The translations under genes were made by a program, and so were the position numbers. The notes beneath the pieces are model-generated. The model saw nothing but the letters and a program-made list of their open reading frames with translations, was not told where the DNA came from and searched no databases. This document shows, piece after piece, positions 46,917 through 64,000 of a stretch of 64,000 nucleotides of DNA. How positions within the stretch are numbered: position 1 is the stretch's first letter; each line of letters starts with the position of its first letter. The stretch is taken from positions 1,815 to 65,814 of the forward strand of contig CALVZF010000001.1 of the NCBI GenBank assembly GCA_944372455.1, given 5' to 3'. The stretch is from an uncultured Bacilli bacterium (GTDB lineage: Bacteria; Bacillota_I; Bacilli_A; RF39; UBA660).

Positions 46917-46993
46917 GTCCTGGTAGCTCAGTTGGATAGAGCAATCGCCTTCTAAGCGATCGGTCAGGGGTTCGAATCCCTTCCAGGACACCA
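46917..46993 (+). tRNA. tRNA-Arg (anticodon TCT)
   Basis: Cloverleaf: acceptor GTCCTGG/CCAGGAC, D-arm GCTC-AGTTGGATA-GAGC, anticodon loop CTTCTAA, T-arm GGGGTTCGAATCCC, encoded CCA. Confidence 0.9.
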
Positions 46994-46999
46994 CTTTAT

Positions 47000-47084
47000 G
47001 CGGATGTGGCGGAATTGGCAGACGCACTAGACTTAGGATCTAGCGGAGCAATCCATGGGGGTTCAAGTCCCTTCATCCGCACCA
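47000..47084 (+). tRNA. tRNA-Leu (anticodon TAG), long variable arm
   Basis: Acceptor GCGGATG/CATCCGC, anticodon stem-loop CTAGA-CTTAGGA-TCTAG, variable arm, T-arm GGGGTTCAAGTCCC, encoded CCA. Confidence 0.9.
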
Positions 47085-47095
47085 TTGAGGTTGAT

Positions 47096-47127
47096 ACACG
47101 CACACCTATATTAGATGTGTGTTTTTC
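47096..47127 (+). terminator. putative terminator after the tRNA pair
   Basis: CACAC-loop-GTGTG stem followed by TTTTT; modest. Confidence 0.35.
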
Positions 47128-47194
47128 TTTGTTTAAAATAAGTTCATAATATTTGGTATTATGGGCTTTTTTCAATACTAGGAGGTGAATTTTT

Positions 47195-47488
47195 TTGAAA
47201 ACGACCATAGAAACTTTAAAATTTCCTTGTGAATTTAAGAAAAAACTTAAAATGAAAGCGAGTTTAGGTAATTTAAGTATTAGTTATATTGATGGACATT
47301 TAATTAAGATTAATAATATTAATCTAGGTATAACAGAACCATATAAGATGATTATTAAGAATAATAAAATTACTTTAATTGCTTATTTATATGAAGATAA
47401 TGATAAAATATATTTACCTATTAGTAATGCAATTATAACATTCACAAAATTTACTCAAATACTTAATTCAATGAATAATTTTATTTGA
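47195..47488 (+). CDS. hypothetical protein (TTG start after a strong RBS)
   Basis: AGGAGGTGA RBS 6 nt upstream of TTG; 97 aa, no recognisable domain. Confidence 0.25.
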   Translation: MKTTIETLKFPCEFKKKLKMKASLGNLSISYIDGHLIKINNINLGITEPYKMIIKNNKITLIAYLYEDNDKIYLPISNAIITFTKFTQILNSMNNFI

Positions 47489-47726
47489 TAGTTTATTTAA
47501 GAATTTATTTTTTAATTTAATCCTTATAAAATATGGAAAAGCGGCAAAAAAACACAACTAAAAATACAACTAAAATTTCCACTAAATTCGCTACTGACAA
47601 AGCAATTTAAAACTGCTAAAATAAGGTATGCTAGGAGAAAATTAGATATAATCCTAGTAATTAAACACAAGGAAAATTTTATTTCTTGTGTTTTTTCATA
47701 TTTAAAAAGGAAGGAGGTAGAAAAAT

Positions 47727-49009
47727 ATGCAAGAAAAAAAAATAATAGCTGGTTTATATCCTCGTGTATCAACTGAGGATCAAAGTAGATATGGACATAG
47801 TCTAGATGAACAAGAAGATAGATTAAAGAAATTGTGTGATTATAAGGAATATGAAATTTATAAAGTCTATCGTGAAGAAGGGGTTTCAGCTAAAAGTATG
47901 AAACGACCTAAATTTCAAGAAATGATTGAAGATATGAAGTCTGGTAAAATAAATAAAATTATTGTTTATAAATTAGATAGATTAACTCGTTCTATACAGG
48001 ATTTAGAAAGTATCTTTAGAATGCTTGAAGAATATGATTATAGCTTAGAAAGTGTATCAGAAGATATTAATACTGAAACAGCAACTGGTAAATTCTTTGT
48101 TAGAATGACTACAATACTAGCTCAACTAGAAATTGAAAGATGTTCTGAAAGAACTAAATTTGGTTTAGTAGGAGCTGCTAAAAAAGGTCATATAAGTGGA
48201 CAGCCACCTTTAGGTTATACTAAAGAATCAGAAAATAAATCTATTATAATTGATGATGTACAAGCTGAAGTTGTAAGAAGAATATTTAGATTGTATCTTG
48301 ATGGTATGTCAGTATGTTCTATTTGTAAATTATTTAAAGAAGAAAATGTATTAAATAGAAGATGGCCTACTACAACTGTAGATAAAATATTATCTAATCA
48401 ACTCTATATTTGTAATGTGGTTCATAGAAAAAGATCTGGTGAAGATGTAGAAATATTTGAAGATGTTGTACCTGCAATTATAGATAAAACTGATTTTGAA
48501 ATGGTACAAAAAGCAAAGAAAAGAATCTAAAGAATTATATGAGAAAACATACTTTTATCTTTATGCAGAAAATTAAATGTCCTAAATGTAATAAGATTAT
48601 GGGTGGATGCTCTAGTACAAGTAAAACTGGTAAGAAACATATCTATTATCAATGTTCAAAATGCAGAATGAGAATCAGCGAGAAGAAATGTGAAAAATCC
48701 ATCTTAAAATTCTTAAATGATATGTTGGATTTCTTCTTAATAATTGATAATTCATTTAAACCTATAATGAATAAAGACACATCAAATGAAATAATAAAAT
48801 ATAAAAATAAATTATCAGAACTAGAAGAAAAAGATACAAGAATTAAGAAGGCATTTGTTGATGGATTATTAGAACCAGATGATTTACAAACTGAAATTAA
48901 ATTATTAAATTCGGAAATTGATATTGTAAAAAACAAAATAAATGAGTTAGAAAAGTTACAAAATTCATTAGATTATAAACAAGATATTAATACATTCTTT
49001 AATCTATAA
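47727..49009 (+). pseudogene. large serine recombinase (resolvase + recombinase + zinc-ribbon/coiled-coil), split by a frameshift near 48500-48530
   Basis: N-terminal catalytic YPRVSTEDQ and recombinase domain in frame 0 (47727-48530). Zn ribbon CPKCNK...CSKC and coiled coil continue in the -1 frame from 48500, open to 49009. The junction sits in an A-rich tract. Confidence 0.7.
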
Positions 49010-49021
49010 GAAATAGAAAAA

Positions 49022-49462
49022 ATGAAAATAAAATCTGACTATGTTAAACAAAATAATCTATGGATAAAACTAACTAAAGAACAGAAACAATACATTATAA
49101 ATAAGTATATTGATGAGTTTGAAGTTAAAGTAGATAAAGATTATAATGTTCAAATCACTAATATTATTTTCAATAAAAATGAATTAGAAAATATTGGATA
49201 TATGTTTAGAAATGATTGTTTTGATCTAATTGTTAACGTAAAAGATAGAGATATTATTTTATCTAACCATAAAACTGATGAAGAAACTATAAACTATATT
49301 GATACACTAAAAAATTTTTATAAGATAACTGAAACAGAAATTACTGGAGAATTATTTAATATAAATGATTATGATAATGATGAAATTATTCAAATAATTC
49401 CACAAGAAAAAAAGAATAAATTTGAAAAAAATAAATTTAAAATTTTACAAATTGAAGCATAA
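49022..49462 (+). CDS. hypothetical protein
   Basis: 146 aa ORF with no recognisable domain. Confidence 0.3.
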   Translation: MKIKSDYVKQNNLWIKLTKEQKQYIINKYIDEFEVKVDKDYNVQITNIIFNKNELENIGYMFRNDCFDLIVNVKDRDIILSNHKTDEETINYIDTLKNFYKITETEITGELFNINDYDNDEIIQIIPQEKKNKFEKNKFKILQIEA

Positions 49463-50223
49463 CATTTGCTTCTTTTTTTTTACTTAAGGGGGGTTGATAA
49501 ATATGAATTGTTTTTTTTAATTTTTATTAGCGCAATTACTAGAATATTTTGATAATGATAAAGAAAAATTATTAGAATTTATTCCTATAATTGCATTAGA
49601 AAATTATAAAAATGATATAAATGATGTAATACGGTTAGAAACATCAAAAATAAGTGAAAAATCATAAATCACTAAATTTAGTTGATTAAAAAACCTTATA
49701 AAATAAGGGTAAAAACACTATAATAGTTAAAATTTGAACCTAAAAAGTGGAAAAATAGTTGTTTTCGCAAGTGCGAAAATGGTTGTTGGTGCATTCCCAT
49801 ATCCTATTATAATTAAAATTTTAACTATTTTGAAGAAAGGAGGTATTTTTTATAATGGAAGTCAGTGTTGTATTACACGAAGAAGATGCAGAATTATTAT
49901 CAAAATATATGAAAGATAATAATATAAAAACTAAGCAAAAGTTGTAAGAAAATGTATAGAATTTGCTTCAAGAAAATTATCAATGGATGATATGATTTGT
50001 GATATAGATAATAAAATAAATAGACTTTTATATAGAGAAAATTTTAAGAAAAAACTATTAGAACAATTTTATGCGAATATGGAATTTAAAAAGGAAGCGG
50101 ATGTAAAAACTGAGCTAAGTTTAAGAAGATTTTATGATAGTAAAAGTCTTTTAATTAATAAGACCAAGGATAAAAAAATATGATATAATATGTATAATTA
50201 ATTACTTTGGGAGGTGTGATTCC

Positions 50224-51111
50224 ATGAATAATTTTAACTTAAATTTGTTTAAATATTTCTATTATGTCGTTTATTACAATGGGTTTACTAATGCATCAAA
50301 AAATTTAAATATTGCTCAATCATCATTAAGTTATAATATAAAACAATTAGAATTACAGTTAGATAAAACATTAATTATTAGAGATAATAAGATTTTTGAA
50401 TTAACTGAAGATGGATATAATTTGTATGAAAATCTAAAATCCGCTTTTATTATTTTAAATCAAAATTTGGAACAATTTGATAATAAAAATACTATGGAAT
50501 TGACTATTGGGGTTAGACATTATTTATCAGATTTTATTTTTTTAGATTCGATAGTTGAATTTATTAATACATATCCTAATATCCATATTAATATAAAACT
50601 ATATTCTAAATTGGATGTTAAAAAATTTGAAGATGAATATGATGTGTTAATTGATTATGAAGATTATACTAATTTAATTAATACTAATAATAAAGATTTA
50701 TTATGTATTTTAAACAATACTTTTGTTTCAGGAAAAGAACTATCAAAAAATTATGATTCAATTCAATCTATTAAAGAACTAGCAAATACGAGATTAATAT
50801 CAATGTGTCCAAATAAACGAAATGGTAAATTTCAAAAAATGTGTTTTGAAAATGGTATTTTATTTAAAAACATTATATCAGTTAATGATAGTATAATATC
50901 TAAGGAATTAGTAAAGAATAATTTAGGATTATGCTTTGTTAATAGGGAGTTTTTTAAAGAAGAAATTGCAAATGGAGATGTAAAAGAAATTAAAGTAAAA
51001 GAACAATTGTTTAATGACAGTGTATATATTGTTTATAAAAATGGTAAAAATATTAATAACATAAACAAATTTATTAAGATATTAAAAAATCAATATAAGG
51101 AGGAATTATAA
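50224..51111 (+). CDS. LysR-family transcriptional regulator
   Basis: N-terminal LysR HTH (LNLFKYFYYVVYYNGFTNASKNLNIAQSSLSYNIKQLE) and substrate-binding domain length. Confidence 0.8.
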   Translation: MNNFNLNLFKYFYYVVYYNGFTNASKNLNIAQSSLSYNIKQLELQLDKTLIIRDNKIFELTEDGYNLYENLKSAFIILNQNLEQFDNKNTMELTIGVRHYLSDFIFLDSIVEFINTYPNIHINIKLYSKLDVKKFEDEYDVLIDYEDYTNLINTNNKDLLCILNNTFVSGKELSKNYDSIQSIKELANTRLISMCPNKRNGKFQKMCFENGILFKNIISVNDSIISKELVKNNLGLCFVNREFFKEEIANGDVKEIKVKEQLFNDSVYIVYKNGKNINNINKFIKILKNQYKEEL

Positions 51112-51626
51112 TGAGTAAGTGGGACTTATATGATGATAAATTTAATAATACTGGAATTATTATAAATGATACTGATGAAATACCCGATGGTAAGTATCAT
51201 TATTCTATAAATGCATGGATATTAAATTCAAAAAAACAATTATTATTAATACGAAATACTTTAAATTATAATATTCATTATCCTGGTTTTTGGAATAGTA
51301 TTAATGGTAATGTTTTAAGTGGTGAAAGTCCAACTGATACCTGTATTAGAGCAATTAATTCTAAAATTGGAATAAAAGTTTCAAATTATGATATTAAAAA
51401 AATAGATACAAAATTGCGTGATCCTTATCATTACATTTATGAAACTTATATAGTTAATAAAGATATTAATTTAAATGAGATATGTTTTGCAGATAATACT
51501 GTTGTTCAGGCAAAATGGATTGATTTGAATGAATTATATAACATGATTGAAAATGGGGAAATCGCGTGGGTTTTAATTCCAAGAATAGAAGAATATGTAA
51601 TACCGCTAATGAAAGAGACTAACTAA
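51111..51626 (+). CDS. Nudix-like hydrolase (degenerate Nudix box)
   Basis: Nudix-fold length and partial box (GESPTDTCIRAINSKIG); overlaps the LysR stop. Confidence 0.45.
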   Translation: MSKWDLYDDKFNNTGIIINDTDEIPDGKYHYSINAWILNSKKQLLLIRNTLNYNIHYPGFWNSINGNVLSGESPTDTCIRAINSKIGIKVSNYDIKKIDTKLRDPYHYIYETYIVNKDINLNEICFADNTVVQAKWIDLNELYNMIENGEIAWVLIPRIEEYVIPLMKETN

Positions 51627-51668
51627 AATTGAACTGAACCCCAAAAGTTGGACAGTTTATAATTAGTA

Positions 51669-52508
51669 TTAATTAGAGGATTGTAACCTGTAATTTACAG
51701 GAGACAGTCCTTTTAATTTTTCTTTAAGTCTATCATGATTATAATAATAAATATAGTCATCTATTGCATTTATTAAATTATCCAATGTCTCATATTTATC
51801 TTCCTGATCATAAAACATCTCTGTTTTTAGTATTCCGAAAAATTTTTCCATTAATCCATTATCCATACTATTTCCTTTTCTGGACATACTTTGTTTTATA
51901 CCTTTATTTTTTAATCTCTGTTGATATGTGTCATGTTGATATTGCCATCCTTGATCAGAGTGAAATATTAAACCCTCTAAATTTCTTCCATCAAAAGCTT
52001 TATTTAACATATCATTTATTTGTTCTAAATTTGGTGATTTAGAAACATTATAGGATATTATTTCTTGATTGAATCCATCTAATACTGGTGAAAGATAGAT
52101 TTTTTCTCCTCTTAAATTAAACTCTGTAACATCAGTATACCATTTTTTATTTGGTTTATCTGCTTCAAAATCTCTGTTAATAAGATTATCTGCAATTTTA
52201 CCGATAGTTCCTTTATAAGAAGAGTATTTACTTTTATTTCTTTTTAAAGGTCTTAATCCCGATTTAACCATTAAACGATATACTTTTTTATGATTTACTT
52301 TATAGCCACGATTTCTTAATTCTAAAGTTATTCTGCGATAACCATATCTTTCTTTATGTTTAAAAAATATTTCTTTTATTTTATCAATTATTTCGCTGTT
52401 TTTATCATCTTTATCATTTTTAGATAAAGTATAATAATAAACGGATTTTGCCAATCCTGATACTTTTAGAAGAATCTTTAATGGATATGTTAGCCGAAGT
52501 TCATTCAC
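51669..52508 (-). CDS. IS3-family transposase OrfB (DDE/rve integrase core)
   Basis: Integrase core motifs (WYTDVTEF, HSDQGWQYQ). -1 frame relative to orfA with an AAAAAG slippery tract at the junction. Confidence 0.85.
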   Translation of the reverse strand: MNELRLTYPLKILLKVSGLAKSVYYYTLSKNDKDDKNSEIIDKIKEIFFKHKERYGYRRITLELRNRGYKVNHKKVYRLMVKSGLRPLKRNKSKYSSYKGTIGKIADNLINRDFEADKPNKKWYTDVTEFNLRGEKIYLSPVLDGFNQEIISYNVSKSPNLEQINDMLNKAFDGRNLEGLIFHSDQGWQYQHDTYQQRLKNKGIKQSMSRKGNSMDNGLMEKFFGILKTEMFYDQEDKYETLDNLINAIDDYIYYYNHDRLKEKLKGLSPVNYRLQSSN

Positions 52509-52513
52509 AACAC

Positions 52514-53020
52514 TTACTTTTTCTTCTGTTGTTGATTCTTCCTTGCTTGAACAACAGCTCTCAATTTTTTTGAGTATTCTAATTCTGCCTTCAAATATAA
52601 TTTTTCTTCTTCTAATCTTTTGATTTTTTCATCTTTAGTTTCATTTTCTTTTTTCTTTTCTACTTTTGGCATAGTTGGACGACCTCGCTTTCGTTCAACT
52701 ATATTATAACCGTTTTCTTTGTATTTTTTAATCCAATTTTGTAACATTCCATCGCTTGACAAACCTATATCTAAAGATACTGACCATACTGGTTCTTTAT
52801 TTAATAGTACTCTATCTATTGCATCCTGTTTAAACGTTATAGGGTAACTTTTATTTCTTGATGTCTTGACCACATCAAATCCATGTATATCTATTAATTT
52901 TATTAAATATGTAATTCCTGATTCCCTTTTATTATATTTTCTTGATAATGTATTTATTGATGAACCTTCTTTGTAATCGTGGCATAAATTTATTTTATCT
53001 TCATAACTTAATTTGCTCAT
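52514..53020 (-). CDS. IS3-family transposase OrfA (HTH + leucine zipper)
   Basis: HTH near the N-terminus, basic/coiled-coil C-terminus ending KKNQQQKKK before the frameshift window. Confidence 0.8.
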   Translation of the reverse strand: MSKLSYEDKINLCHDYKEGSSINTLSRKYNKRESGITYLIKLIDIHGFDVVKTSRNKSYPITFKQDAIDRVLLNKEPVWSVSLDIGLSSDGMLQNWIKKYKENGYNIVERKRGRPTMPKVEKKKENETKDEKIKRLEEEKLYLKAELEYSKKLRAVVQARKNQQQKKK

Positions 53021-53161
53021 ATAAAAACCTCGTTTCTATGTCCAAGAAACGGGGTTCATATCAAATTGATTAGTCTCTTTATTATTGATTTTTTCTATAT
53101 GTTATATCGAATTTTTGAATGATTAAAATGTACTGTATTATTATATAATATATGTGATTTG

Positions 53162-54692
53162 GAGTGATTATATGCAAAGTATACCAGATTCATTAAAACG
53201 AATTATAGAAAAAAATCCAATTTTGGAACATACCGTTAGAGGATTACCAAATTTAGGTGAAAACTTAGTTGATGGTCAATTTTCCAGAGAAGTTAATAAA
53301 ATTTATGATGCTTTTGAATTATATGGCAATGATTTATATGAACTTGAAAATGAAAGAATTAAAAATATTTCTTCAAGATCACTTGGTGGTGGAAGTCCAA
53401 TGAGAACATTTGCATTTCCTTTATGTAAAGAAGAACTAATTAAAATAATTGATAGCGATAAGTTATCAGATTATCCTATGGCTGCAGGTGATGAGGAGTC
53501 AAGAAAAATAATTTTAGAATATTTAAATCAAGAAGGATTTAAAAGTAATAGTGGGTTATCAAAAGATAATATTATTTTTACAGTTTCCTCTACACATGCA
53601 TTTAACATTATTTCAAGTATTATTGCTAGGCCATATGATGTAATATTAATGACAGGTCCAAATTATGGCTTATTTACGTTTGTTCCTGAACGTATTTCTG
53701 GGGCAACTGTTGAGATTTTGCCATTATCTGAAGAAGATAATTGGTATGTTAATCCACAAAAGTTATCAAAAAGGATTGATGAAATTAATGCAGATTTAAA
53801 AACTAAATATGGTGAATCTTTAGGATATACACCAAAAGTTGTTGCATTTTTAAATGAAAATCCACATAATCCTTTAGGCAAAGTAATGAATGAAAATAAT
53901 AAAGAAATACTTGAAGGTATTGGAAATGTTTGTTTATCAAAAGGTGTATTTGTTATAGATGATTTAATATATAGAGACCTAACTTATGATAGAAATAATT
54001 TAGCAAAACCGATAGCTTCTTATGAAAAATTCTTTGATAATACAATAACAATAACTGGTTTATCAAAATCTTATGGTTTAGCATCGATTAGATCTGGTAT
54101 GGTAGTTGCAAATGAGATAATAATTAGAGCGATACGAAATAAAATTTTTCAAACAATGGATTCTTCACCAGTATTACAAGGTAGAGCTTTGGCTGGTGCA
54201 TTTAACGCATCTGAAAGACGAAAAAAAGAGTATAATAATTATTTTAATCCAATTATTGAGGAATATAAATATCGTTTAGAATTATTGAAAGCATTAATTA
54301 ATGGTATAGATTTTATTAAAGATAGTAACTTAAAAGTGCAAATAGAAAATGATATAAGAAATTATGCTTATGATTATAATATAAGTCAAATTTTAGACGG
54401 AATACCAAATATCGATTTTGTAAATGGAACAATACCTGATTCTGGATTTTTTGAAATGTTAGATTTTACAGGATTAAAAAACAAAGTTGCTGAAAACGGT
54501 AGAGTAATTAGTGATGAAAAAGAATTGCTTAAATATTTGTATGAACAAGAAAAAATTAAACTTATATTAGGTCAATCAATATCATGGCCAAATGAGGAAC
54601 AACTTATAGGAAGAGTTACCACTGCACTTCCAAGAGAAGATTTAGTTGAACATTTTGGTGCAATGAATAAATGTTTAAGGAAGTTGAAATAA
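53162..54692 (+). CDS. PLP-dependent aminotransferase (class I/II fold)
   Basis: NENPHNPLG (NPxNPTG-like) and PLP-lysine motif SKSYGLASIRSG. Confidence 0.75.
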
Positions 54693-54693
54693 A

Positions 54694-55566
54694 ATGAAAA
54701 ACGTTGGAATTATATCTTGTGATAAGTGGATGAATAAAATCACTGAAGATTTATTATTAAAGCAAGAATTAATGAATAATAATATAAATGCGAAAATTAT
54801 TTCGTGGGAAGACATGACAATTGATTATTCAAAATTTGATTGCTTAATATTGCGTTCAGCTTGGGGGTATCAAGATAAATATTTAAAATTTAAAGAATGG
54901 TTGCAGATGATAAAAAATAAAAATATTTTATTATTAAACTATCCAGATATTATTATTAATAATATTCAAAAGAATAAACAATTTAATATTTTAGAAAGAA
55001 ATAATATTCCATTCATCCATACTAGTTTTGTATACAATGAAGATGATTTATTAGAAAGACTTAATTTAAATCCTTTAATAGTTGTTAAACCAATAATATC
55101 TGGAAGTGGAAAAAATACATATTTAATAAATCGAGATGATTTATTAAATTTAAGAAATATATTAAATAAATTAAAAAATATTTTTATCCAGAATGATAAT
55201 GGAATAATGATACAACCATATATTAATGGTATAGAAAATGGTGAGTATTCTTGTATTTTTATTGATGGTATTAATACCCATAATATGTTAAGGTTTCCTG
55301 GTATTTTTTCAGAAAAAAAAAGACCGATATATTTATCAGACATACCACATTGTGTTAAAAAAATAGCAAATGATGTATCGAAATTAGAGGAATTTACAGG
55401 TTATTTATATATGCGAGTTGATATTGTATTACAAGATGGTAATCCAATAATTATGGAAGTTGAACTAGCCGAACCAGATTTGTTATTTAAGTATATTGAA
55501 TACGACAAAGTTAGAGATCGAGGAATAAAATTACTATCAAAAAGTATAGTTAGGAGAATAAAATAA
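54694..55566 (+). CDS. ATP-grasp family ligase (RimK/glutathione-synthetase-like)
   Basis: Domain length and pattern (pre-ATP-grasp, then IVVKP...SGSGKNTYLI, central and C-terminal lobes); by eye only. Confidence 0.5.
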   Translation: MKNVGIISCDKWMNKITEDLLLKQELMNNNINAKIISWEDMTIDYSKFDCLILRSAWGYQDKYLKFKEWLQMIKNKNILLLNYPDIIINNIQKNKQFNILERNNIPFIHTSFVYNEDDLLERLNLNPLIVVKPIISGSGKNTYLINRDDLLNLRNILNKLKNIFIQNDNGIMIQPYINGIENGEYSCIFIDGINTHNMLRFPGIFSEKKRPIYLSDIPHCVKKIANDVSKLEEFTGYLYMRVDIVLQDGNPIIMEVELAEPDLLFKYIEYDKVRDRGIKLLSKSIVRRIK

Positions 55567-56816
55567 TGAAAACTTTATTATATTTTGAGGAATATGAATC
55601 TGATCTTTCAAAAGCATTGAGAAGAAGAAAAGATATTAATGTTTTATTTATTAGAACAGATAAGAATATAAATTTTTTTAGTAATGAGTATTTAGAAAAA
55701 TACAAAGATTATTATCAATTCTTCTATTATAATGATTTTGATATAGAAATTCATAAGTTTAAAAATTGGCTGAATCATAAAAAAATTAAAGTAGATTATT
55801 TTTTAAATGATTCTGAATTTTATATGGAGTATTCAAATAAAATTGCTGATAAACTTGGATTAGATTGTTTAAGTCCTGAACAAGTAAAGTGGGTAAGAGA
55901 TAAAGTTGCTATGAAAGATAGATTTAATCAAATTGGTTTAAAAACAGTTGATTATCAAATTGTTACTTCTAAAAAAGATATTTTGGAATTTATGAAAAAG
56001 CATTTAGGAGAACCAATTATATTTAAACCGAGAGATTTAATGAATAGTAAAAATGTATTTAAAATTGATTGTATTAGTGATTTAGATCAAATAGATTTAA
56101 ACTTAGAAGATGAAAGGTATATGGTTGAATCATATTGCTATGATCAAGAATGGTCAATAGAAAGTCTTGTTCAAAATGGTATAGTACTTGATTCTTATGT
56201 AACTTATATACCTAATAGAACTTTATGGGCGGCAATGGATAATAGATTAAATTGTCATATGACAGTTCCTAAAACACCTAAATATTTTAAGTTTATTCCC
56301 AAAGACTTTATTCAAAAAATAGTAGACGGTATGAATTTAAAAAATGGTGTAATGACAATAGAGGTGTTCATAGATGACGATGGTAATGTGATGCCAAGTG
56401 AATTAGGATGGCGTTTACCTGGTTGTCAAGCAACTAAGAACCATAGCTTATCTTATGGGTTTGATATGATTGATGCATTAATTGATATAGTAATTCATAA
56501 AACAGTTGATTTAAAATATAGAGATGAAATTATTAGTGTAGGTGACTTATATCTTCCTAATAAATCAGGGTTAATAGAAAAAATAACGCCATTAGAAAAA
56601 TTATTAAAAATGAATGGTGTAATCGATGGTGAAATGTTTGTTAAAACTGGAGATTATCGAGAAAAAAGAAGAGTTGGAAATGATGCATCTGGTTGGGTTC
56701 AAGTTTCAGGTAAAAATGAATTTGATACATTAAGAAAGATGCAAGCTGTTTATGATGATTTTGAAATAGTATCATCAGATGATATAGGAGGAAGAAAATA
56801 TGTTAAAAAGATTTAG
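55566..56816 (+). CDS. ATP-grasp family ligase (possible L-amino-acid ligase)
   Basis: ATP-grasp core (DKVAMKDRFNQIGLKT...IIFKPRDLMNSKNVFKI, ME-loop region); start overlaps the upstream stop. Confidence 0.55.
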   Translation: MKTLLYFEEYESDLSKALRRRKDINVLFIRTDKNINFFSNEYLEKYKDYYQFFYYNDFDIEIHKFKNWLNHKKIKVDYFLNDSEFYMEYSNKIADKLGLDCLSPEQVKWVRDKVAMKDRFNQIGLKTVDYQIVTSKKDILEFMKKHLGEPIIFKPRDLMNSKNVFKIDCISDLDQIDLNLEDERYMVESYCYDQEWSIESLVQNGIVLDSYVTYIPNRTLWAAMDNRLNCHMTVPKTPKYFKFIPKDFIQKIVDGMNLKNGVMTIEVFIDDDGNVMPSELGWRLPGCQATKNHSLSYGFDMIDALIDIVIHKTVDLKYRDEIISVGDLYLPNKSGLIEKITPLEKLLKMNGVIDGEMFVKTGDYREKRRVGNDASGWVQVSGKNEFDTLRKMQAVYDDFEIVSSDDIGGRKYVKKI

Positions 56817-57591
56817 TGGATATTTATTAGTAATTATACCTATTATATTAATAACAACTGGTTGTACAAATAAATTAAGTGTTATAAATAAAAAAGATGA
56901 TTTAAATAATAAAAATATAGGTGTATATACAGGTTCAGAATATGATAGCATTGCAGAAGATAACATAGAAAATCCTAAAATCTTATATTACAACAGCTAT
57001 AGTGATCAAATATCTGCTTTAAAATCTGGTAAGATAGATGGTTTCCTAGCCGATAAACCTTTAGCGAAAGAAATAATAAAAGAAAATACGGAATTAAAAA
57101 TATTAAAAGAAAAATTAACAGAAGATAGTTATGCATTTGCTATTAATCCAGAAAAAAGTAATTTGCAGTATGAGATTAATAAAGAATTAGTTAAGATGAA
57201 TAAAAATGGTAAATTAAAAGCATTTGAAGATAAATGGATGGGTAATGATGAAAGCAAGAAAGAATTAGAAGTTTATCATTATGATGATTCAAAAGGCGTG
57301 GTTAAATTTGCTACGGTATCTGGTTCAGCACCATTTGCTTACATGAAAAATAATAAAATAGTTGGATATGATATTGATGTTATTAGTTATATTTGTAAAG
57401 AATTAGGTTATAAATTAGAGATTATAGAAATGTCATTTGATGGAATAATACCAGCATTAAAATCGGGAAAAGTAGATATAGCTGGATGTTCGATTATTGT
57501 TACTGAGGAAAGAAAAAAATCTGTTTTATTCTCAGAACCAGATTATACTGGTGGAATTGTAGTAGTTGTTAGAGGAACAAATGAAAAGTAG
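56800..57591 (+). CDS. amino-acid ABC transporter substrate-binding lipoprotein (SBP family 3)
   Basis: Lipobox LITTGC; SBP_bac_3 motifs (IGVYTGSEYD, GKIDGFLADKP, GYDIDV...GKVDIAG). Confidence 0.8.
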   Translation: MLKRFSGYLLVIIPIILITTGCTNKLSVINKKDDLNNKNIGVYTGSEYDSIAEDNIENPKILYYNSYSDQISALKSGKIDGFLADKPLAKEIIKENTELKILKEKLTEDSYAFAINPEKSNLQYEINKELVKMNKNGKLKAFEDKWMGNDESKKELEVYHYDDSKGVVKFATVSGSAPFAYMKNNKIVGYDIDVISYICKELGYKLEIIEMSFDGIIPALKSGKVDIAGCSIIVTEERKKSVLFSEPDYTGGIVVVVRGTNEK

Positions 57592-58357
57592 AACTAAGTT
57601 TATAAAAATTTTTACTGTATTATTTCTTATACTAATAGTTATATTTATTAGTAAGAATGTAATTATAGATTTTTTAATTAATATTAGTAATAGTTTTAAT
57701 CGAACAGTAATAGTAGAAAAAAGATATATTTTATTCTTAAAGGGATTAAATTCAACTCTATTAATTTCATTCTTATCAATTATATTTGGCACATTATTAG
57801 GAATTATTTTATTCTTGTTACAAAGATTAAAGATACGAGTTTTAAATATATTATCGTATATGGTGGTACGTTTTTTGCAGGGGATTCCAGTAACAATATT
57901 ATTATTAACATTCTATTTTGGAATTTTTGGAGATATAAAAATAGAACCTATTTTAGTAGCAATAATAACATTCTCAATATATTTTTCAGTATATGTTTCT
58001 GAAATTGTTAAAGGATCATTTCTATCAATTAATAGAACACAAATTGATTCTGCTTATGCTTTAGGTTTTACTAAACTTCAAGCAGTTAGATATATAATTA
58101 TTCCTCAAGTGCTTTCGTATGTAATACCAGTTTATAAAAACGAAAGTGTTTCATTAATAAAATCTACTTCTATAGCTGGATATATATCTATAATAGAACT
58201 AACTAAAGCAAGTGATATCATAAGAAATAGAACTTATGAAGCATTTTTCCCATTAGTATTTACATCGCTTATATATTTTATAATTTGTTATGCATTTTGT
58301 AAATTATTGGATCTATTGTATAAGAAAATTAATCCAAGGATGGTGAAAAAATCATGA
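57581..58357 (+). CDS. amino-acid ABC transporter permease (His/Glu/Gln/Arg/opine family)
   Basis: EAA-like loop (ESAYALGFTKLQAVRYIIIPQ) and 5 TM helices. Confidence 0.8.
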   Translation: MKSRTKFIKIFTVLFLILIVIFISKNVIIDFLINISNSFNRTVIVEKRYILFLKGLNSTLLISFLSIIFGTLLGIILFLLQRLKIRVLNILSYMVVRFLQGIPVTILLLTFYFGIFGDIKIEPILVAIITFSIYFSVYVSEIVKGSFLSINRTQIDSAYALGFTKLQAVRYIIIPQVLSYVIPVYKNESVSLIKSTSIAGYISIIELTKASDIIRNRTYEAFFPLVFTSLIYFIICYAFCKLLDLLYKKINPRMVKKS

Positions 58358-59025
58358 AAAAAGATTGCATATTAGAATTTGAAAATGTTTCAAAATACTA
58401 TGGTGATGAATTGGTATTTAATAATGTTAATTTAAAAATTAAAAAAGGTGAAGTGATTTCTATAGTAGGAAAAAGTGGAAGTGGAAAGAGTACTTTATTA
58501 AAGTGTATAAACCGTTTAGAAAGTATTGATAATGGTAATATAAAGTTTAAAGGGATGGATATAGCAAAAAAATCTCTTGTGGAATTAAGACAAAAAATTG
58601 GTATAGTATTTCAAGATTATAATTTATTTGAACACCTAACTGTATTTGATAATCTTATGATAGGTTTAATTAAAATAAAGGGTTACTCTAAGAAAGATAG
58701 TATTCATAAGGTTTTAAATATTTTAAAAAAAATGGATTTGACTGATAAAAAGGATAAATATCCAGATGAATTATCTGGAGGGCAAAAACAAAGAATTGCT
58801 ATTGCCAGAACTCTATTAATGGAACCAGATATTATTCTTTTAGATGAACCTACAAGTGCTTTAGATAAAGAAATGAGAGATAGTGTATTAGAATTAATTA
58901 ATGACCTTGTTGATGAAGATATGACTTTAATTGTAGTATCACACGAAAATGAATTTGTTAATAAAGTGTCAGATAGAATTTTTATCCTTAATAAACATAC
59001 TTTATTGGAGAAGAAAAATGGATAG
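58354..59025 (+). CDS. amino-acid ABC transporter ATP-binding protein
   Basis: Walker A GKSGSGKST, signature LSGGQKQR, Walker B ILLDEPTSALD. Confidence 0.9.
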   Translation: MKKDCILEFENVSKYYGDELVFNNVNLKIKKGEVISIVGKSGSGKSTLLKCINRLESIDNGNIKFKGMDIAKKSLVELRQKIGIVFQDYNLFEHLTVFDNLMIGLIKIKGYSKKDSIHKVLNILKKMDLTDKKDKYPDELSGGQKQRIAIARTLLMEPDIILLDEPTSALDKEMRDSVLELINDLVDEDMTLIVVSHENEFVNKVSDRIFILNKHTLLEKKNG

Positions 59026-59905
59026 TATCAATAGTTATAAAATTATAGAAAAATTTCTATTAGGTGGTTCATCTGTTCAAAAATATATTGTTGAAAAAAA
59101 CAATAAAATATTCTTGCTAAGATTATATGATATAAGATTTATGAATAGTAGATATAGAGCTTTTGATAATATTAGAATCTTATATGATAATGGAATAAAT
59201 GTTCCTGAAATATATGATTTTGGTGAACTTTCTGATAATAAACATGGTTATGTTGTTATGGATTGGGTTGATGGAGTTTCTTTAGATAATTTATTAACTG
59301 ATGATAGTTGTTTAATTAATAAATATGTAAAAATAGTGGCAAATGAATTATTAAAAATGCATAGTATAGCTATAAATGAAAATATAGATATACATGATAA
59401 GTTTATAAAGTCGTTTAATAAGAAAATAAATAAGTTGAAAAATCTTGGTATAGATTATACATCTTCAGTTTTAGAATCGTTTGTTTTAGATAATAGTAAA
59501 GTTTTAAAAGAATTGGATACAAGTATTATACATGGAGATTTTCACCCTGGAAATATAGTAGTTAATGATGATAGTATTTGTTTTATAGATATGGATGTAT
59601 GTAAGAATGACTTTGCTTGGGTGGATCTATCAACAAATGCTTGTAATCTCAATTATCCTAAGTTTTATACAGCTTTAATAAATGAGTATTTTGATAATAA
59701 TATACCAGATGATTTTTGGCTAATATATAATCTATACGGTTTATTATATTGCTTAGATTATATACTTTATTGTAGTAGAATGGATAATAAAACACTTGAA
59801 GATGGTACTACAGTCTTAAAAAAATTTTTAGATTATTCAGATGAATTTAGTTCATTGAAACCTAAGTGGTTTGATAATAGTAAGGTTTTAAGAAAGGAAA
59901 AATAG
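59018..59905 (+). CDS. APH/ChoK-fold phosphotransferase (kinase)
   Basis: Brenner motif IIHGDFHPGNIVV and DFG-like ICFIDMDV; start overlaps the upstream stop (ATGGATAG). Confidence 0.7.
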   Translation: MDSINSYKIIEKFLLGGSSVQKYIVEKNNKIFLLRLYDIRFMNSRYRAFDNIRILYDNGINVPEIYDFGELSDNKHGYVVMDWVDGVSLDNLLTDDSCLINKYVKIVANELLKMHSIAINENIDIHDKFIKSFNKKINKLKNLGIDYTSSVLESFVLDNSKVLKELDTSIIHGDFHPGNIVVNDDSICFIDMDVCKNDFAWVDLSTNACNLNYPKFYTALINEYFDNNIPDDFWLIYNLYGLLYCLDYILYCSRMDNKTLEDGTTVLKKFLDYSDEFSSLKPKWFDNSKVLRKEK

Positions 59906-59907
59906 AT

Positions 59908-60834
59908 ATGAGAGAATTGAAAAAATATGAAGGAAATAGAGTTATATTAATGGCTTGTTCAAAATGTAATGTTGCTTGCAAACATTGTTACATAGGATAT
60001 GCTGGAAATAGAACTCCAGAAGAACTAAAAATATTAGCAGAACATTATAAAAATAAATATAAAATAGTAAGAATAGATGGTGCCGAACCACTTGTTGACT
60101 TAGGATATTTGCCTTCTTACAAAATAGTTGAACAAGATTGGATTATGACAAATGGCCTTAGAATATTTCAGGAGCCTGAGATAATAGATTTATTATTAGA
60201 AAATGGAATAAGAAATGTATTTATGTCTTATCATTTTGAAATACAAGATAGTTTAAATGGTATTACTAATGAGATGTTAAATGAAGTTATTAAAATATTA
60301 AGAGAAAAAGGAATTAGAGTTGTTTTAATGACAACAATTACAAACAAAAATGCTAAAGATACTTTAGAAATATGTGATAATGCATATGAATTGGGTGCAT
60401 CTGGAATAGAATTTAATAAAATATTTATTCAAGGAAGAGCTAAGAATCTATCTAATATTGGATTAGTAAAAGAAGATTATGATTGTTTTTTTACACAGTT
60501 AAAACAGGCTAGAGACAAATATGATATAAATGACTTTGAAGTAAGAAGAAGTGGTACTTTTGGTTGTGATACTGTTAATGAGCCAAATAATTTTAGATGT
60601 AGTGCAGGTGTAAAAAAAGTATGTATTACACCTGATGATAAAGTTTATGGTTGCACATGTATTTGTAAACCAGGTTATGAAGTTGGAAAAATAATTGATG
60701 GTGAAATATATATATATTCTGATTTTGAAAATGATCGTACATGGTGTTTAGGCGATAAAATGGGTGAATTAGGTATCGAAAATATTCAGGATCTTAATAA
60801 TCCAAAAATTAAGAGTTTAGTTAGAAAGATTTAA
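59908..60834 (+). CDS. radical SAM enzyme with C-terminal SPASM/twitch-like Cys cluster
   Basis: CNVACKHCY (C-x3-C-x2-C) near the N-terminus; C-terminal FRCSAGVKKVCITPDDKVYGCTCICKPG auxiliary-cluster cysteines. Confidence 0.7.
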   Translation: MRELKKYEGNRVILMACSKCNVACKHCYIGYAGNRTPEELKILAEHYKNKYKIVRIDGAEPLVDLGYLPSYKIVEQDWIMTNGLRIFQEPEIIDLLLENGIRNVFMSYHFEIQDSLNGITNEMLNEVIKILREKGIRVVLMTTITNKNAKDTLEICDNAYELGASGIEFNKIFIQGRAKNLSNIGLVKEDYDCFFTQLKQARDKYDINDFEVRRSGTFGCDTVNEPNNFRCSAGVKKVCITPDDKVYGCTCICKPGYEVGKIIDGEIYIYSDFENDRTWCLGDKMGELGIENIQDLNNPKIKSLVRKI

Positions 60835-60835
60835 T

Positions 60836-61603
60836 ATGAATAAGAACGAATTAAATAATATACTAAAAAAGTACTATTCTTTTAGCGATGTAGCTATGAG
60901 TAAATTGAATATAAATGATAAGCAACATTTTGATTTAGTGATTGTTTCTCCAACTTGGAAACCGCATTTTGTATTTAATGAAAAATATAGTGTCGAAAAT
61001 TTGAAAAAAGGAAGCACTTCTACATTTATTTTGTATTATAATAATAAAAAAATATTATTTATTAAGACTGGCAAAGGAGCACCAAATATGTTTGATAATT
61101 TACTACTATTGAGAAATATCGATGCACCATATATATTTTTAGGATCTGCTGGTTCTTTGAGTGAAAATGTTCAGGAGGGAGATATTTTTATACCAGATTA
61201 TTCTATTTCAGGTGATGGTGCATCATTATATTTTGAAAAGAAAATAGATACTGCTAATTTTTGTAATAAAATATTTTTTAGTACTGAAATTAAACAACAT
61301 ATCGAGAGTGTTTTAAAAAATAGTAATTTTTCGTATAAAACTGGTGGAATTTATTCCACGGATACATTAATTGGCGAATATTATCATACTCAAGAAATAA
61401 TAGAACTTGGTGCATCTTGCATTGAACAAGAAACTGCTTCATTTGGTAAATGTATGAAAATTATGGAAAAAGAAGGGTTTCCAATTTTAGTGATATCTGA
61501 TTCATTAGTTACTGATACAAGCTATTATGAACCAATCGAGAATAAGCAAAAATACCTTTTAACTAGAACAAAAAAACTACAAAAGATAATTAGTAAATTT
61601 TAG
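60836..61603 (+). CDS. PNP/UDP-phosphorylase-fold (nucleoside phosphorylase/nucleosidase family) protein
   Basis: GSAGSL...GDIFIPD and IEQETASF patterns typical of the PNP_UDP_1 fold; by eye only. Confidence 0.45.
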   Translation: MNKNELNNILKKYYSFSDVAMSKLNINDKQHFDLVIVSPTWKPHFVFNEKYSVENLKKGSTSTFILYYNNKKILFIKTGKGAPNMFDNLLLLRNIDAPYIFLGSAGSLSENVQEGDIFIPDYSISGDGASLYFEKKIDTANFCNKIFFSTEIKQHIESVLKNSNFSYKTGGIYSTDTLIGEYYHTQEIIELGASCIEQETASFGKCMKIMEKEGFPILVISDSLVTDTSYYEPIENKQKYLLTRTKKLQKIISKF

Positions 61604-61611
61604 GGGGAATT

Positions 61612-62178
61612 ATGAAATATATAATAATGTCAGATGGAAAAGGAACAAGATGGAATAATTATCTTGGCATTACGAAACAAGAAGTTATTATTAACAATGA
61701 AAGATTAATTGATAGAACTATTAGAATGATTTTAGAAAGGTCAATTGATGATATATATATATTATCAAGTAATCAAAGTCATGAAAGTAAATATGCGAAG
61801 AGAATAGTTTCAAAATATGATGATTATTTTCATAAAAAGTATGCTTACGATTATCTTGATGATTCAATAACTTATTTATATGGAGATACATTTTATGATG
61901 AAAAAACAATGGATATAATTATAAAAGATATATGTGAGAACATAAGTTTTTATGGTAATGAACATGCAATTGTTGCCGTGAAAGTAAATAATTATAAGTT
62001 ATTAAAGAATGTAATAGATAACTCAGATAACAGTCATCATTCTCTTTATCATTTATTTGACAATTTTGAAGAGTATAGAACTTTTGTTAATGTTGGAGAT
62101 GGATTTGTCAATATAAATACTCCAAATGATTATACTAACTTAATTAAAAATGATAAAAGATTGATATTAAAGAGGTAA
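61612..62178 (+). CDS. MobA/LicC-like NTP-transferase (nucleotidyltransferase)
   Basis: N-terminal IIMSDGKGTRW (cf. LAGGxGTRL/M) signature of sugar or phospho-alcohol nucleotidyltransferases. Confidence 0.5.
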   Translation: MKYIIMSDGKGTRWNNYLGITKQEVIINNERLIDRTIRMILERSIDDIYILSSNQSHESKYAKRIVSKYDDYFHKKYAYDYLDDSITYLYGDTFYDEKTMDIIIKDICENISFYGNEHAIVAVKVNNYKLLKNVIDNSDNSHHSLYHLFDNFEEYRTFVNVGDGFVNINTPNDYTNLIKNDKRLILKR

Positions 62179-62182
62179 TTAT

Positions 62183-63088
62183 ATGCTTGATGAAATAGTT
62201 GTACAAATAATAGAAAAAAATATAAACGAAAAAATAACAAGTATAAAGCAAATTAATTCTGGCTACAGTAGAATAATTTTTCTGATAAATGATAAATATA
62301 TTTTGAAAATTGTCACTAATCCCATTAAAGATAATAATACAATTAAAGAAGTGAATTTTTTATTAAATAATGATATTCTAGAATTTATTCCAAAGGTGAT
62401 ATTTTGTGATTTTACAAAAAAGTCTTTTCCATATGTATACTATTTAGAAAGAAAAATTAATGGAGAATCATTATTATTAAAATGGCCTTTATTAAAAGAA
62501 AGTGAAAAACAACAAATATTAGTTCAATTATTGGAAAAGTTAGATAAATTACATTCTCTTGATTATAGTTCACATTTTGATAATAATTGTTTAGATTTAC
62601 TATTAAAAGAATATGATAATTACTTAAGTAAAATTATATATTCTAAAATTTTAAACAAAGAAAAAATACATTATTTATATGAATTAAAGAATACAATTCC
62701 ATATTTATTAGAAGGCGCAAAAACTGGATTAATTCATGGAGATTTGCATTTTAATAATATTTTAGTTAATGATGATAATAAGATATCAATAATTGATTTT
62801 GAAAAATTAAAACATTCATTTGTTGAGAGGGAATTAGATCCTATAAATCGTATGTCAAGAAATCCTAATTCTTTTAATACTAATCCAAAAATTGTATTAA
62901 TCGATTATGATTTTCGAAATATTATGAATTTTATAAAAAATAATTTTGAAGCGATAAATAATGATAAATTTGATGACAGATTATTACTTTTTGATTGTTT
63001 AAACTCATTAATGTGGTTAGAAAAGTATCCTAAATATGAGTTATATAATGATATTCTTTTTAACAAAAGTAAAAAATTATTAAGGTAA
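62183..63088 (+). CDS. APH/choline-kinase-fold phosphotransferase
   Basis: LIHGDLHFNNILVN and IIDFE motifs. Confidence 0.65.
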   Translation: MLDEIVVQIIEKNINEKITSIKQINSGYSRIIFLINDKYILKIVTNPIKDNNTIKEVNFLLNNDILEFIPKVIFCDFTKKSFPYVYYLERKINGESLLLKWPLLKESEKQQILVQLLEKLDKLHSLDYSSHFDNNCLDLLLKEYDNYLSKIIYSKILNKEKIHYLYELKNTIPYLLEGAKTGLIHGDLHFNNILVNDDNKISIIDFEKLKHSFVERELDPINRMSRNPNSFNTNPKIVLIDYDFRNIMNFIKNNFEAINNDKFDDRLLLFDCLNSLMWLEKYPKYELYNDILFNKSKKLLR

Positions 63089-63130
63089 ATGTGATATAAT
63101 ATAATTGATTAAAGAATGGAGTGAAGTTGT

Positions 63131-63658
63131 ATGAAAGAAATACTATATAATTATGATAATTTAAAGTTAGAGGATATTGATGAGGTTGTTACTAGAACAA
63201 AGGGTTTGATTATTAATAGTAATAATGAAATAACTTTAGGCTATTCTCATAAAACTTACCAATTTCCAGGTGGTCATTTAGAGCATGGCGAAAGTTTAGA
63301 AGAATGTTTATTAAGAGAAATAGCAGAAGAAACAGGAATAGAAATAAAAGATGCTAAATTAAAACCTTTTGAAAAAATTACTTATTATAGTAAAAATTAT
63401 CATGGATCTGGTAAAAATAGAAAAAATGATATTTATTATTATATTATAAATACTGATGCTAAATTTGATATGAACAATTCAAAATTAGATAATTGGGAAA
63501 AAGATGGTAATTTCACTGTTAAGACTTTCCCAATCGAAAACATTGAGCAAGTATTAATTGATAGTATACCTGATAATCCAATCAACAAGGTGATTGTTGA
63601 AGAAATGTTAGATATTTTAAAAGAATATAACAAAATAAGTAATATGGATAGAGATTAA
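63131..63658 (+). CDS. Nudix hydrolase
   Basis: Nudix box GGHLEHGESLEECLLREIAEETGIE. Confidence 0.8.
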   Translation: MKEILYNYDNLKLEDIDEVVTRTKGLIINSNNEITLGYSHKTYQFPGGHLEHGESLEECLLREIAEETGIEIKDAKLKPFEKITYYSKNYHGSGKNRKNDIYYYIINTDAKFDMNNSKLDNWEKDGNFTVKTFPIENIEQVLIDSIPDNPINKVIVEEMLDILKEYNKISNMDRD

Positions 63659-63659
63659 T

Positions 63660-64000
63660 ATGAAGTATTTAATTGTAATTGATAGTGATGGTACATTAAG
63701 ACATTCTGATGGTAATATTTCTGATAAAACCAAAAAAATTATGAAAAAGGTTGTGGACTGTGGAAATATTGTTGTTATTTGCACTGCAAGACCTAGATAT
63801 TATACATTAAAGGTTTCAAATGAAGTAGGTTTAAACGAGTATTTAATATCATCTAATGGTACAGAAATCTATGATAACATTAATAAAAAAAATATTTATT
63901 CTACATATTTACCAAAAGAGGAATGTAAAATAATATATCAAGAAACAAAGAAACTTGGGCTTAGAGTTATGTTCGTATCAGAAAATACTGAATATGTAAC
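63660..64000 (+). CDS. HAD-superfamily (Cof-like, IIB) phosphatase, 3' end outside the window
   Basis: Motif I VIDSDGTL and Cof-like spacing (ICTARP); truncated by the window end. Confidence 0.6.
   Translation, partial: MKYLIVIDSDGTLRHSDGNISDKTKKIMKKVVDCGNIVVICTARPRYYTLKVSNEVGLNEYLISSNGTEIYDNINKKNIYSTYLPKEECKIIYQETKKLGLRVMFVSENTEYV

Follow-up and report, generated by a model that had tools for sequence, protein, structure and literature searches.

A probable dead large serine recombinase module at a tRNA-Leu gene of an uncultured Bacilli bacterium

What entered the genome of an uncultured Bacilli bacterium behind a pair of tRNA genes, how far does the acquired DNA extend, and could it still move? 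These questions are raised by a stretch of 64,000 nucleotides (GenBank contig CALVZF010000001.1, positions 1,815 to 65,814, forward strand; called the window below), in which a tRNA-Arg/tRNA-Leu pair is followed by a broken large serine recombinase (LSR) gene and, farther downstream, by an insertion sequence (IS) of the IS3 family. An initial annotation, made from the sequence alone, had described a recombinase split into two reading frames and had taken all DNA from 47.1 kb onward as horizontally acquired. Comparison with related loci makes it very likely that positions 47085 to ~50183 are the dead integration module of an LSR-driven integrative element, fixed and decaying, and that the IS3 copy arrived later. 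The object itself is ordinary genome wreckage, and the LSR family to which it belongs is the more interesting result.

Lesions in the recombinase gene and its module

The LSR pseudogene (47727-49462, +) measures 1736 nt, against 1737 nt in intact 578-codon relatives, and is classed as an integrase by PHROG as well as matching Pfam. It is now read as three open reading frames (ORFs), at 47727-48530, 48539-49009, and 49022-49462, the last two of which lie in one frame with a single TAA between them. A protein rebuilt from all three aligns with uninterrupted 578-amino-acid (aa) homologues at 94 to 95% identity and 100% coverage, and about 1,900 homologues were found in all. The first ORF carries the two N-terminal domains named in the initial annotation, a Resolvase domain (PF00239, residues 10-155, E 2e-37) whose motif RVSTEDQ, with nucleophilic S15, is invariant in 10 sequences, and a Recombinase domain (PF07508, residues 178-265, E 1.4e-17). 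In the second ORF the zinc ribbon is a weak match (PF13408, E 1.5e-4, 22.5 bits versus a cutoff of 25.3), and the zinc-ribbon cysteines C285, C288, C310, and C313 are invariant in the alignment. A coiled coil at about residues 350 to 425 was judged by eye only, and the third ORF, equivalent to the C-terminal 146 residues, had no Pfam match. The best matches among solved structures are the TP901-1 catalytic domain and SPbeta SprA, and the best NCBIfam matches are CcrB and XisF, both far below their cutoffs.

Because intact 578-aa homologues span the three ORFs and both interruptions could be aligned to four intact genes, the LSR is interpreted as one gene with two inactivating lesions, a pseudogene. 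Alignment to intact recombinases, which the initial annotation had proposed as a check, located the first lesion between 48512 and 48513 (+), where a C, the first base of the Arg263 CGC codon, has been lost with a resulting frameshift. The four intact genes read CAAAAACGCAAAGAAAAG in the nucleotide alignment and the window has the same sequence minus the C; in the protein alignment the change of frame falls within VQKRKEKNLKNY. The second lesion (49007-49009, +) changes AAA to TAA and replaces the invariant Lys428 of FNLKEIEK with a stop. Across 1737 nt there were no further indels relative to the four intact genes, and the window copy carries substitutions at otherwise conserved positions, such as C105Y and G229C. 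The frameshift first reported is thus real, but it lies beside an A5 run and not inside a homopolymer, and the two-ORF account missed the second lesion, the third ORF, and a small conserved gene upstream. Relaxed selection on the window gene was also considered, and the counts of unique nonsynonymous and synonymous changes (14/17 in the window versus 28/69 pooled over the four intact copies; p = 0.12) amount to a trend only.

Damage extends to other parts of a 3.1-kb module that comprises a hairpin with a T-run, orf97, the LSR gene, orf54, and orf105, and that is 89 to 93% identical in nucleotide sequence to intact relatives at loci L003, L004, L005, and L045. Its right edge, at ~50135-50190, is common to the relatives, and none of its genes other than the LSR has a Pfam match. 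The orf54 remnant (49503-49700, +; 54 codons when intact) has AAA changed to TAA at codon 6 (49518-49520) and a 1-nt deletion at 49665. Between 49786 and 49787 (+) the window alone has lost 54 nt of spacer, a segment flanked by TGGTGCA repeats in intact copies, and a 1-nt deletion at 49827, just upstream of orf105, is likewise confined to the window copy. The orf105 remnant (49850-50183, +) ends at the right edge of the module; a 1-nt deletion at 49932 shifts its frame, and its C-terminal portion persists as an ORF at 49983-50183. Since lesions occur in orf54, the spacer, and orf105 as well as in the LSR gene, the whole module is judged to be decaying. The inactive recombinase and degenerating element of the initial annotation agree with this damage, which is specific to the window copy.

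One gene of the module is intact. Upstream of the LSR lies orf97 (47195-47488, +; 97 codons), so the recombinase gene does not begin immediately after the tRNAs as first described, while the terminator-like hairpin reported between them is present. The orf97 gene pairs with the LSR in most loci examined (57 to 90% identity); one LSR in L043 stands without it. It had no match in Pfam or PHROG, and a fold search with its AlphaFold2 model (predicted local distance difference test score of 85) gave no informative match. A second conserved structure, a terminator-like hairpin AAACACAAGG...CTTGTGTTT with a T-run (47663-47693, +), precedes the LSR start codon by ~35 to 45 nt in all family members and by ~35 nt in the window. 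It occupies the matching position in L003, L004, L005, L045, L030, L035, L038, L006, and L043, including the L043 LSR without orf97, and among 10 sequences its 11 pairs include 2 with compensatory changes. This hairpin may be an attenuator that gates integrase expression.

Two explanations would leave the LSR functional. In one, programmed frameshifting plus stop-codon readthrough would still produce a single protein and the element would be active, a notion encouraged by the A-rich tract at the frameshift and by the common frame of the second and third ORFs, with only one stop between them. However, close homologues are all single ORFs of 578 to 580 aa that keep the missing C and have AAA in place of the stop, the frameshift site has no X XXY YYZ heptamer, two unrelated events would be required, and the adjoining orf54 and orf105 are broken too; the chance that recoding rescues this gene is close to negligible. 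In the other, the lesions would be sequencing or assembly errors in a gene that is really intact, as could be suspected of a metagenome assembly with a frameshift beside an A5 run. That explanation is very improbable given that the lost base is a C rather than the homopolymer base, that the second lesion is an A-to-T substitution, and that the 3.1-kb stretch holds five further window-specific indels, the 54-nt deletion among them. It also has to contend with the other records of this DNA: Logan contig L001 matches the window at 100% identity across 4287 nt, and the shortened 267-aa product of the first ORF is recorded in both ENA and NCBI assemblies.

Junctions at the CCA end of RNA genes

The tRNA pair is where the initial annotation placed it. 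ARAGORN predicts tRNA-Arg(TCT), a core gene, at 46917-46993 (+) and an intact tRNA-Leu(TAG) at 47000-47084 (+), whose 3' CCA forms the left junction and would be the B arm of the left attachment site, attL. The first positions of the element (47085-47135, +) follow an invariant pattern, TTGAGGTT.A..C.CGCAC.C, which we infer to be the P' arm of attL. Hardly any position varies among the first 22 nt past the junction, which overlap a hairpin with a T-run (~47098-47130, +; -11 kcal/mol, z -1.4) that is conserved across the family. Because of that overlap, the terminator noticed earlier downstream of the tRNAs is best assigned to the element, which would have supplied it to the tRNA.

In every related locus the module opens with the same junction, ...CCA/TTGAGGTT, and this sequence is common to 10/10 distinct contexts. 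The left neighbor is the 3' end of transfer-messenger RNA (tmRNA) in L003, L004, L005, and L045, tRNA-Met in L030-33, tRNA-Gly(GCC) in L035-37, tRNA-Leu(TAG) in the window, and a short CCA-ended pseudo-site in L006, L007, L008, and L038-43. A sister LSR clade (609 to 619 aa, ~50% identical in the N-terminal part) has the same placement after tRNA-Gly(TCC) and tRNA-His. Because the window tRNA-Leu has kept an intact acceptor stem and does not differ in sequence from the tRNA-Leu of L011, crossover is inferred to occur at or after the CCA. Because all four of the closest intact relatives occupy tmRNA, tRNA-Leu is read as probably a secondary site of this element; the last 25 nt of this tRNA gene match the L004 tmRNA 3' end at 20/25 positions. 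Under this model the LSR would recombine the T-arm/acceptor/CCA end of the target gene with an attP in which a short stretch imitates a tRNA 3' end. Scanning viral contigs for the junction motif returned none beyond the two already in the set.

The DNA behind the module differs from member to member and begins exactly past orf105. The L006 module lies behind tail protein and endolysin genes of a temperate phage, an arrangement that fits a phage attP region, and a cI-like repressor gene follows the module in L004. In L038-43 a Mob_Pre relaxase gene behind the module marks mobilizable elements, which stand in tandem with a TnpV-bearing element. The cargo of L035 (L035:15337-18266) encodes SMEK_N, MC6, and DUF2326 proteins, which are defense-like, with an HD/AAA protein and a UDG-like gene adjoining; this trio resembles the ABC-three-component conflict systems. 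Among isolated or cultured phages there was no close relative of the LSR, with the best match at 31 to 32% identity. Taken together, the junctions and cargo raise the proposal, which we hold at even strength, that a gut-Bacilli LSR clade with a 97-aa partner inserts phages, mobilizable elements, and defense islands precisely at the 3'-terminal CCA of tRNA and tmRNA genes, with close variants using different RNA genes.

A split recombinase gene also occurs elsewhere. In L038:16088-21016 and L039:11855-16783 another LSR gene is interrupted, which leaves Resolvase and Recombinase parts of 134 aa and 413 aa, respectively, separated by an insert that includes a relative of the window IS3 (orfB 79% identical) and a Mob_Pre gene, and the L043 counterpart is intact at 578 aa.

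The downstream block and the IS3 insertion

The window is A+T rich (G+C ~24%, A+T 76%) and belongs to a spore-forming member of the Bacilli on record solely from metagenome assemblies. SpoIIIAH, GerE, and a GerM-like gene lie upstream of the tRNA pair. Related genomes retain the order SpoIIIAH-GerE-GerM-tRNA-Arg (synteny in L011-L021). In the closest, L011 (78% nucleotide identity), homology ends exactly at 47084, the CCA of tRNA-Leu. None of the window genes between 47.1 and 63.6 kb was found within 10 kb downstream of the locus in any relative, so the initial annotation's concern that related strains might carry the same genes here with no junction was not realized within that distance. There is a true synteny break at the tRNA, with an integrase gene adjoining it. 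The locus is also a rearrangement hot spot: the tRNA-Arg/tRNA-Leu pair lies on the opposite strand relative to GerM in L012:11070-11234 and L013:12438-12603, and in other relatives tRNA-Arg stands alone behind GerM.

Beyond the module begins a conserved block that continues past the IS. Its first genes encode a LysR regulator (50224-51111, +) and a Nudix hydrolase (51111-51626, +), and these are colinear elsewhere with the downstream cluster (53154-63658, +), which is possibly cargo. This cluster encodes an aminotransferase, two ATP-grasp enzymes (one with an L-amino-acid-ligase C-terminal domain), an amino-acid-type ABC transporter, two APH-like kinases, a radical-SAM enzyme, and a PNP/UDP phosphorylase. 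Scanning metagenomes with the LysR protein as the query revealed the LysR-Nudix-aminotransferase block, colinear, in seven other loci, at 72 to 92% nucleotide identity in the closer ones. Different genes precede it there: a truncated class-B penicillin-binding protein (PBP) gene (L046:159-443) and a kinase in L046; a truncated PBP gene (L047:16-1131) and a DUF5655 protein in L047; a truncated PBP gene (L051:5101-6060), a histidine phosphatase, and an intact 583-aa LSR in L051; tRNA-His, an orf97-like gene, a 609-aa LSR, and a relaxase-like gene in L053; and ABC transporter genes with an ORF6N-domain gene in L048 and L049. In L046, L047, and L051 the PBP gene ends early, within the transpeptidase domain, and the L051 LSR sits between it and the block; this arrangement could reflect an element inserted into the PBP gene.

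Is the block cargo of the element that left the module? Counting the window, L051, and L053, it lies near LSR genes in three contexts, which favors a view of the block as flexible DNA, repeatedly near such genes and carried as cargo; the probability that it is cargo here is about one half. Its occurrence in other contexts supports mobility, yet these contexts do not establish that it arrived together with the window LSR. A contrary account would make the module the last remnant of a prophage or mobilizable element whose body and right attachment site, attR, have been deleted, and the block an unrelated neighbor. The module ends at ~50183, the block has a promoter region of its own and begins at ~50176-50224, it also occurs in L046-L050 with no window-type LSR, and no attR was found in the window, all of which would suit that account. 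It is less easily squared with the absence of the block beside tRNA-Leu in every sampled genome and within 10 kb in relatives with the GerM-tRNA locus, with the cargo of family members that begins exactly past orf105, or with the adjoining LSR genes of L051 and L053. We regard an unrelated block as a serious contender that falls a little short of even.

Several points weigh against the interpretation of the locus as a dead integration module at a tRNA target. No attR-like repeat of the tRNA-Leu or tmRNA 3' end was found in 47086-64000 (<=6 mismatches/25, <=2/12), and because of this neither the reach of the element nor a cargo role of the cluster is proven. G+C shows no step at the junction and lies at 20 to 27% on either side. 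Both recombination by the LSR clade and the position of crossover are deduced from junctions only, and the L006 junction could be a genuine attP or a boundary between elements in tandem. The copies of the window on record (ENA scaffold ONAT22-1_SAMEA6814459, Logan contig L001, and the NCBI record) may share one sample, so their support for the lesions may not be independent. Of the claim that everything from 47.1 kb onward was horizontally acquired, the synteny break at 47084 is solid, while a single island is not established given a module that ends at ~50183, the lack of an attR, and flat G+C; likewise, of the two element ends that comparison with related genomes had been proposed to define, only the left junction (47084/47085) was located, with no attR in the window.

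The IS3-family element (51630-53063, -) is complete at 1434 bp and lies between the Nudix gene and the cluster, as the initial annotation had it. Its orfA spans 53020-52514 and its orfB spans 52508-51669, and the latter scores 323.9 bits against NCBIfam NF033516 (cutoff 160) and also matches rve, rve_2, rve_3, and HTH_21. The ends are TG...CA, reading TGAACTGAACCCC... from 51630 and TGATATGAACCCC... (reverse strand) from 53063, and the 26-bp imperfect inverted repeats first noted match at 19/26 positions. In related genomes, an end remnant (L014) and a 46-nt solo end of palindromic sequence (L013) confirm both termini. The latter, at L013:15747-15792, is a perfect palindrome of two IS3 left-end copies (TGATATGAACCCCGTTTCTT...AAGAAACGGGGTTCATATCA) standing alone, which could be a solo end or a miniature IS derivative. 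The predicted AAAAAG is present at 52522-52517 (minus strand; GAAAAAG at 52523-52517), directly before the orfA stop (52516-52514), and orfB is in the -1 frame with its codons in register with 52517.

Because Nudix and aminotransferase genes are adjacent and the IS is absent in L046 and L047 (empty sites L046:3561/3566 and L047:3433/3439), the element is interpreted as a lineage-specific insertion, later than the split from relatives in which these two genes adjoin. The intergenic hairpin GAGACTAA...TTAGTCT is whole in both loci, and the window IS3 lies in the loop of that Nudix terminator hairpin. The possible AAT target duplication does border the IS at either end and fits an IS3 element, but 3 bp are weak evidence in DNA of 76% A+T, and the L046/L047 loop sequence differs from the window, so the duplication is not directly readable there. 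A search for other copies had also been advised: only one is present in the window, and an exact look-up of the transposase recorded it at the window locus only, so a second copy was not demonstrated. Two assemblies break inside the IS, which hints at a repeat.

Assembled in order, these observations would describe a short history. An LSR-driven element would have entered at tRNA-Leu(TAG), probably a secondary site, with a crossover at or beside the CCA that left the RNA gene whole and gave it a new terminator. Function would then have been lost through the 1-nt deletion and nonsense codon in the LSR gene and the breakage of orf54 and orf105, leaving the element fixed, and the IS3 would have landed later and independently in the terminator loop between the Nudix and aminotransferase genes.

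Relation to known integrases and islands

The window LSR shares with phiC31, Bxb1, TP901-1, A118, SPbeta SprA, and CcrB the order of Resolvase domain, Recombinase domain, putative four-Cys zinc ribbon, and putative coiled-coil region. Serine integrases of phages and integrative and conjugative elements are also similar in size to the 578-aa LSR, with the gene at an element end beside an att site. Unlike them, the window family would target tRNA and tmRNA 3' ends rather than protein-coding genes and is paired with an unrelated 97-aa protein, and the window copy is a pseudogene. Serine integrases in general require no more than short att sites, with no help from host factors (PMC12884075).

The closest precedent is the ssrA islands of Dehalococcoides, for which McMurdie et al. 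(2011) inferred a CcrB-like serine integrase, DsiB, and described tandem accretion of islands that combine a conserved module with variable cargo (PMC3146451). Like the window family, these islands have an LSR gene beside attL at the tmRNA 3' end and a conserved module with variable cargo, tandem accretion occurs in both (here in L038-43), and some islands are fixed and decayed. The Dehalococcoides module, of six genes, differs in reading on the reverse strand and in including DsiA (a second, small serine recombinase) as well as RecF, ParB, and Mom homologues, none of which the window module has. A 20-bp direct repeat marks attR in Dehalococcoides, whereas none was found in the window, and the window family also uses tRNA-Met, tRNA-Gly, and tRNA-Leu.

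The clostridial mobilizable transposons of the Tn4451/Tn4453 type, which encode the LSR TnpX, TnpV, and a Mob/Pre relaxase, offer a second comparison. As in the window family, their LSR gene stands first at the left end and points into the element, and the L038-43 relatives similarly carry a Mob_Pre relaxase beside a TnpV-bearing element. TnpX accepts loosely defined sites that contain a GA dinucleotide, whereas the ...CCA/TTGAGGTT junction of the window family is fixed at RNA genes. The IS3 copy is typical of its family in length (1434 bp), TG...CA ends, -1 frameshift at AAAAAG, DDE (rve) transposase, and 3-bp flanks; the base before AAA AAG is G and not A, and nothing essential differs.

For this genome, the comparison sets a precise left boundary of acquired DNA at 47084/47085 and indicates an element that is no longer self-mobile. 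For the family, what the intact relatives suggest is a set of serine integrases whose junction with tRNA and tmRNA genes is fixed at the CCA end. RNA-gene targeting is generally taken as almost confined to tyrosine integrases: among 297 serine integrases, Mageeney et al. (2020) predicted t(m)RNA use for 14, stated that no case had been reported, and gave a predicted RNA-gene usage of 4.9% for serine versus 44.5% for tyrosine integrases, with no instance experimentally proven (PMC7192596). An LSR clade of this kind would help explain the rarity of RNA-gene use by serine integrases, a question left open in that study, and the conservation of tRNA ends between species could make a clade directed at them a source of integration tools for uncultured Bacilli.

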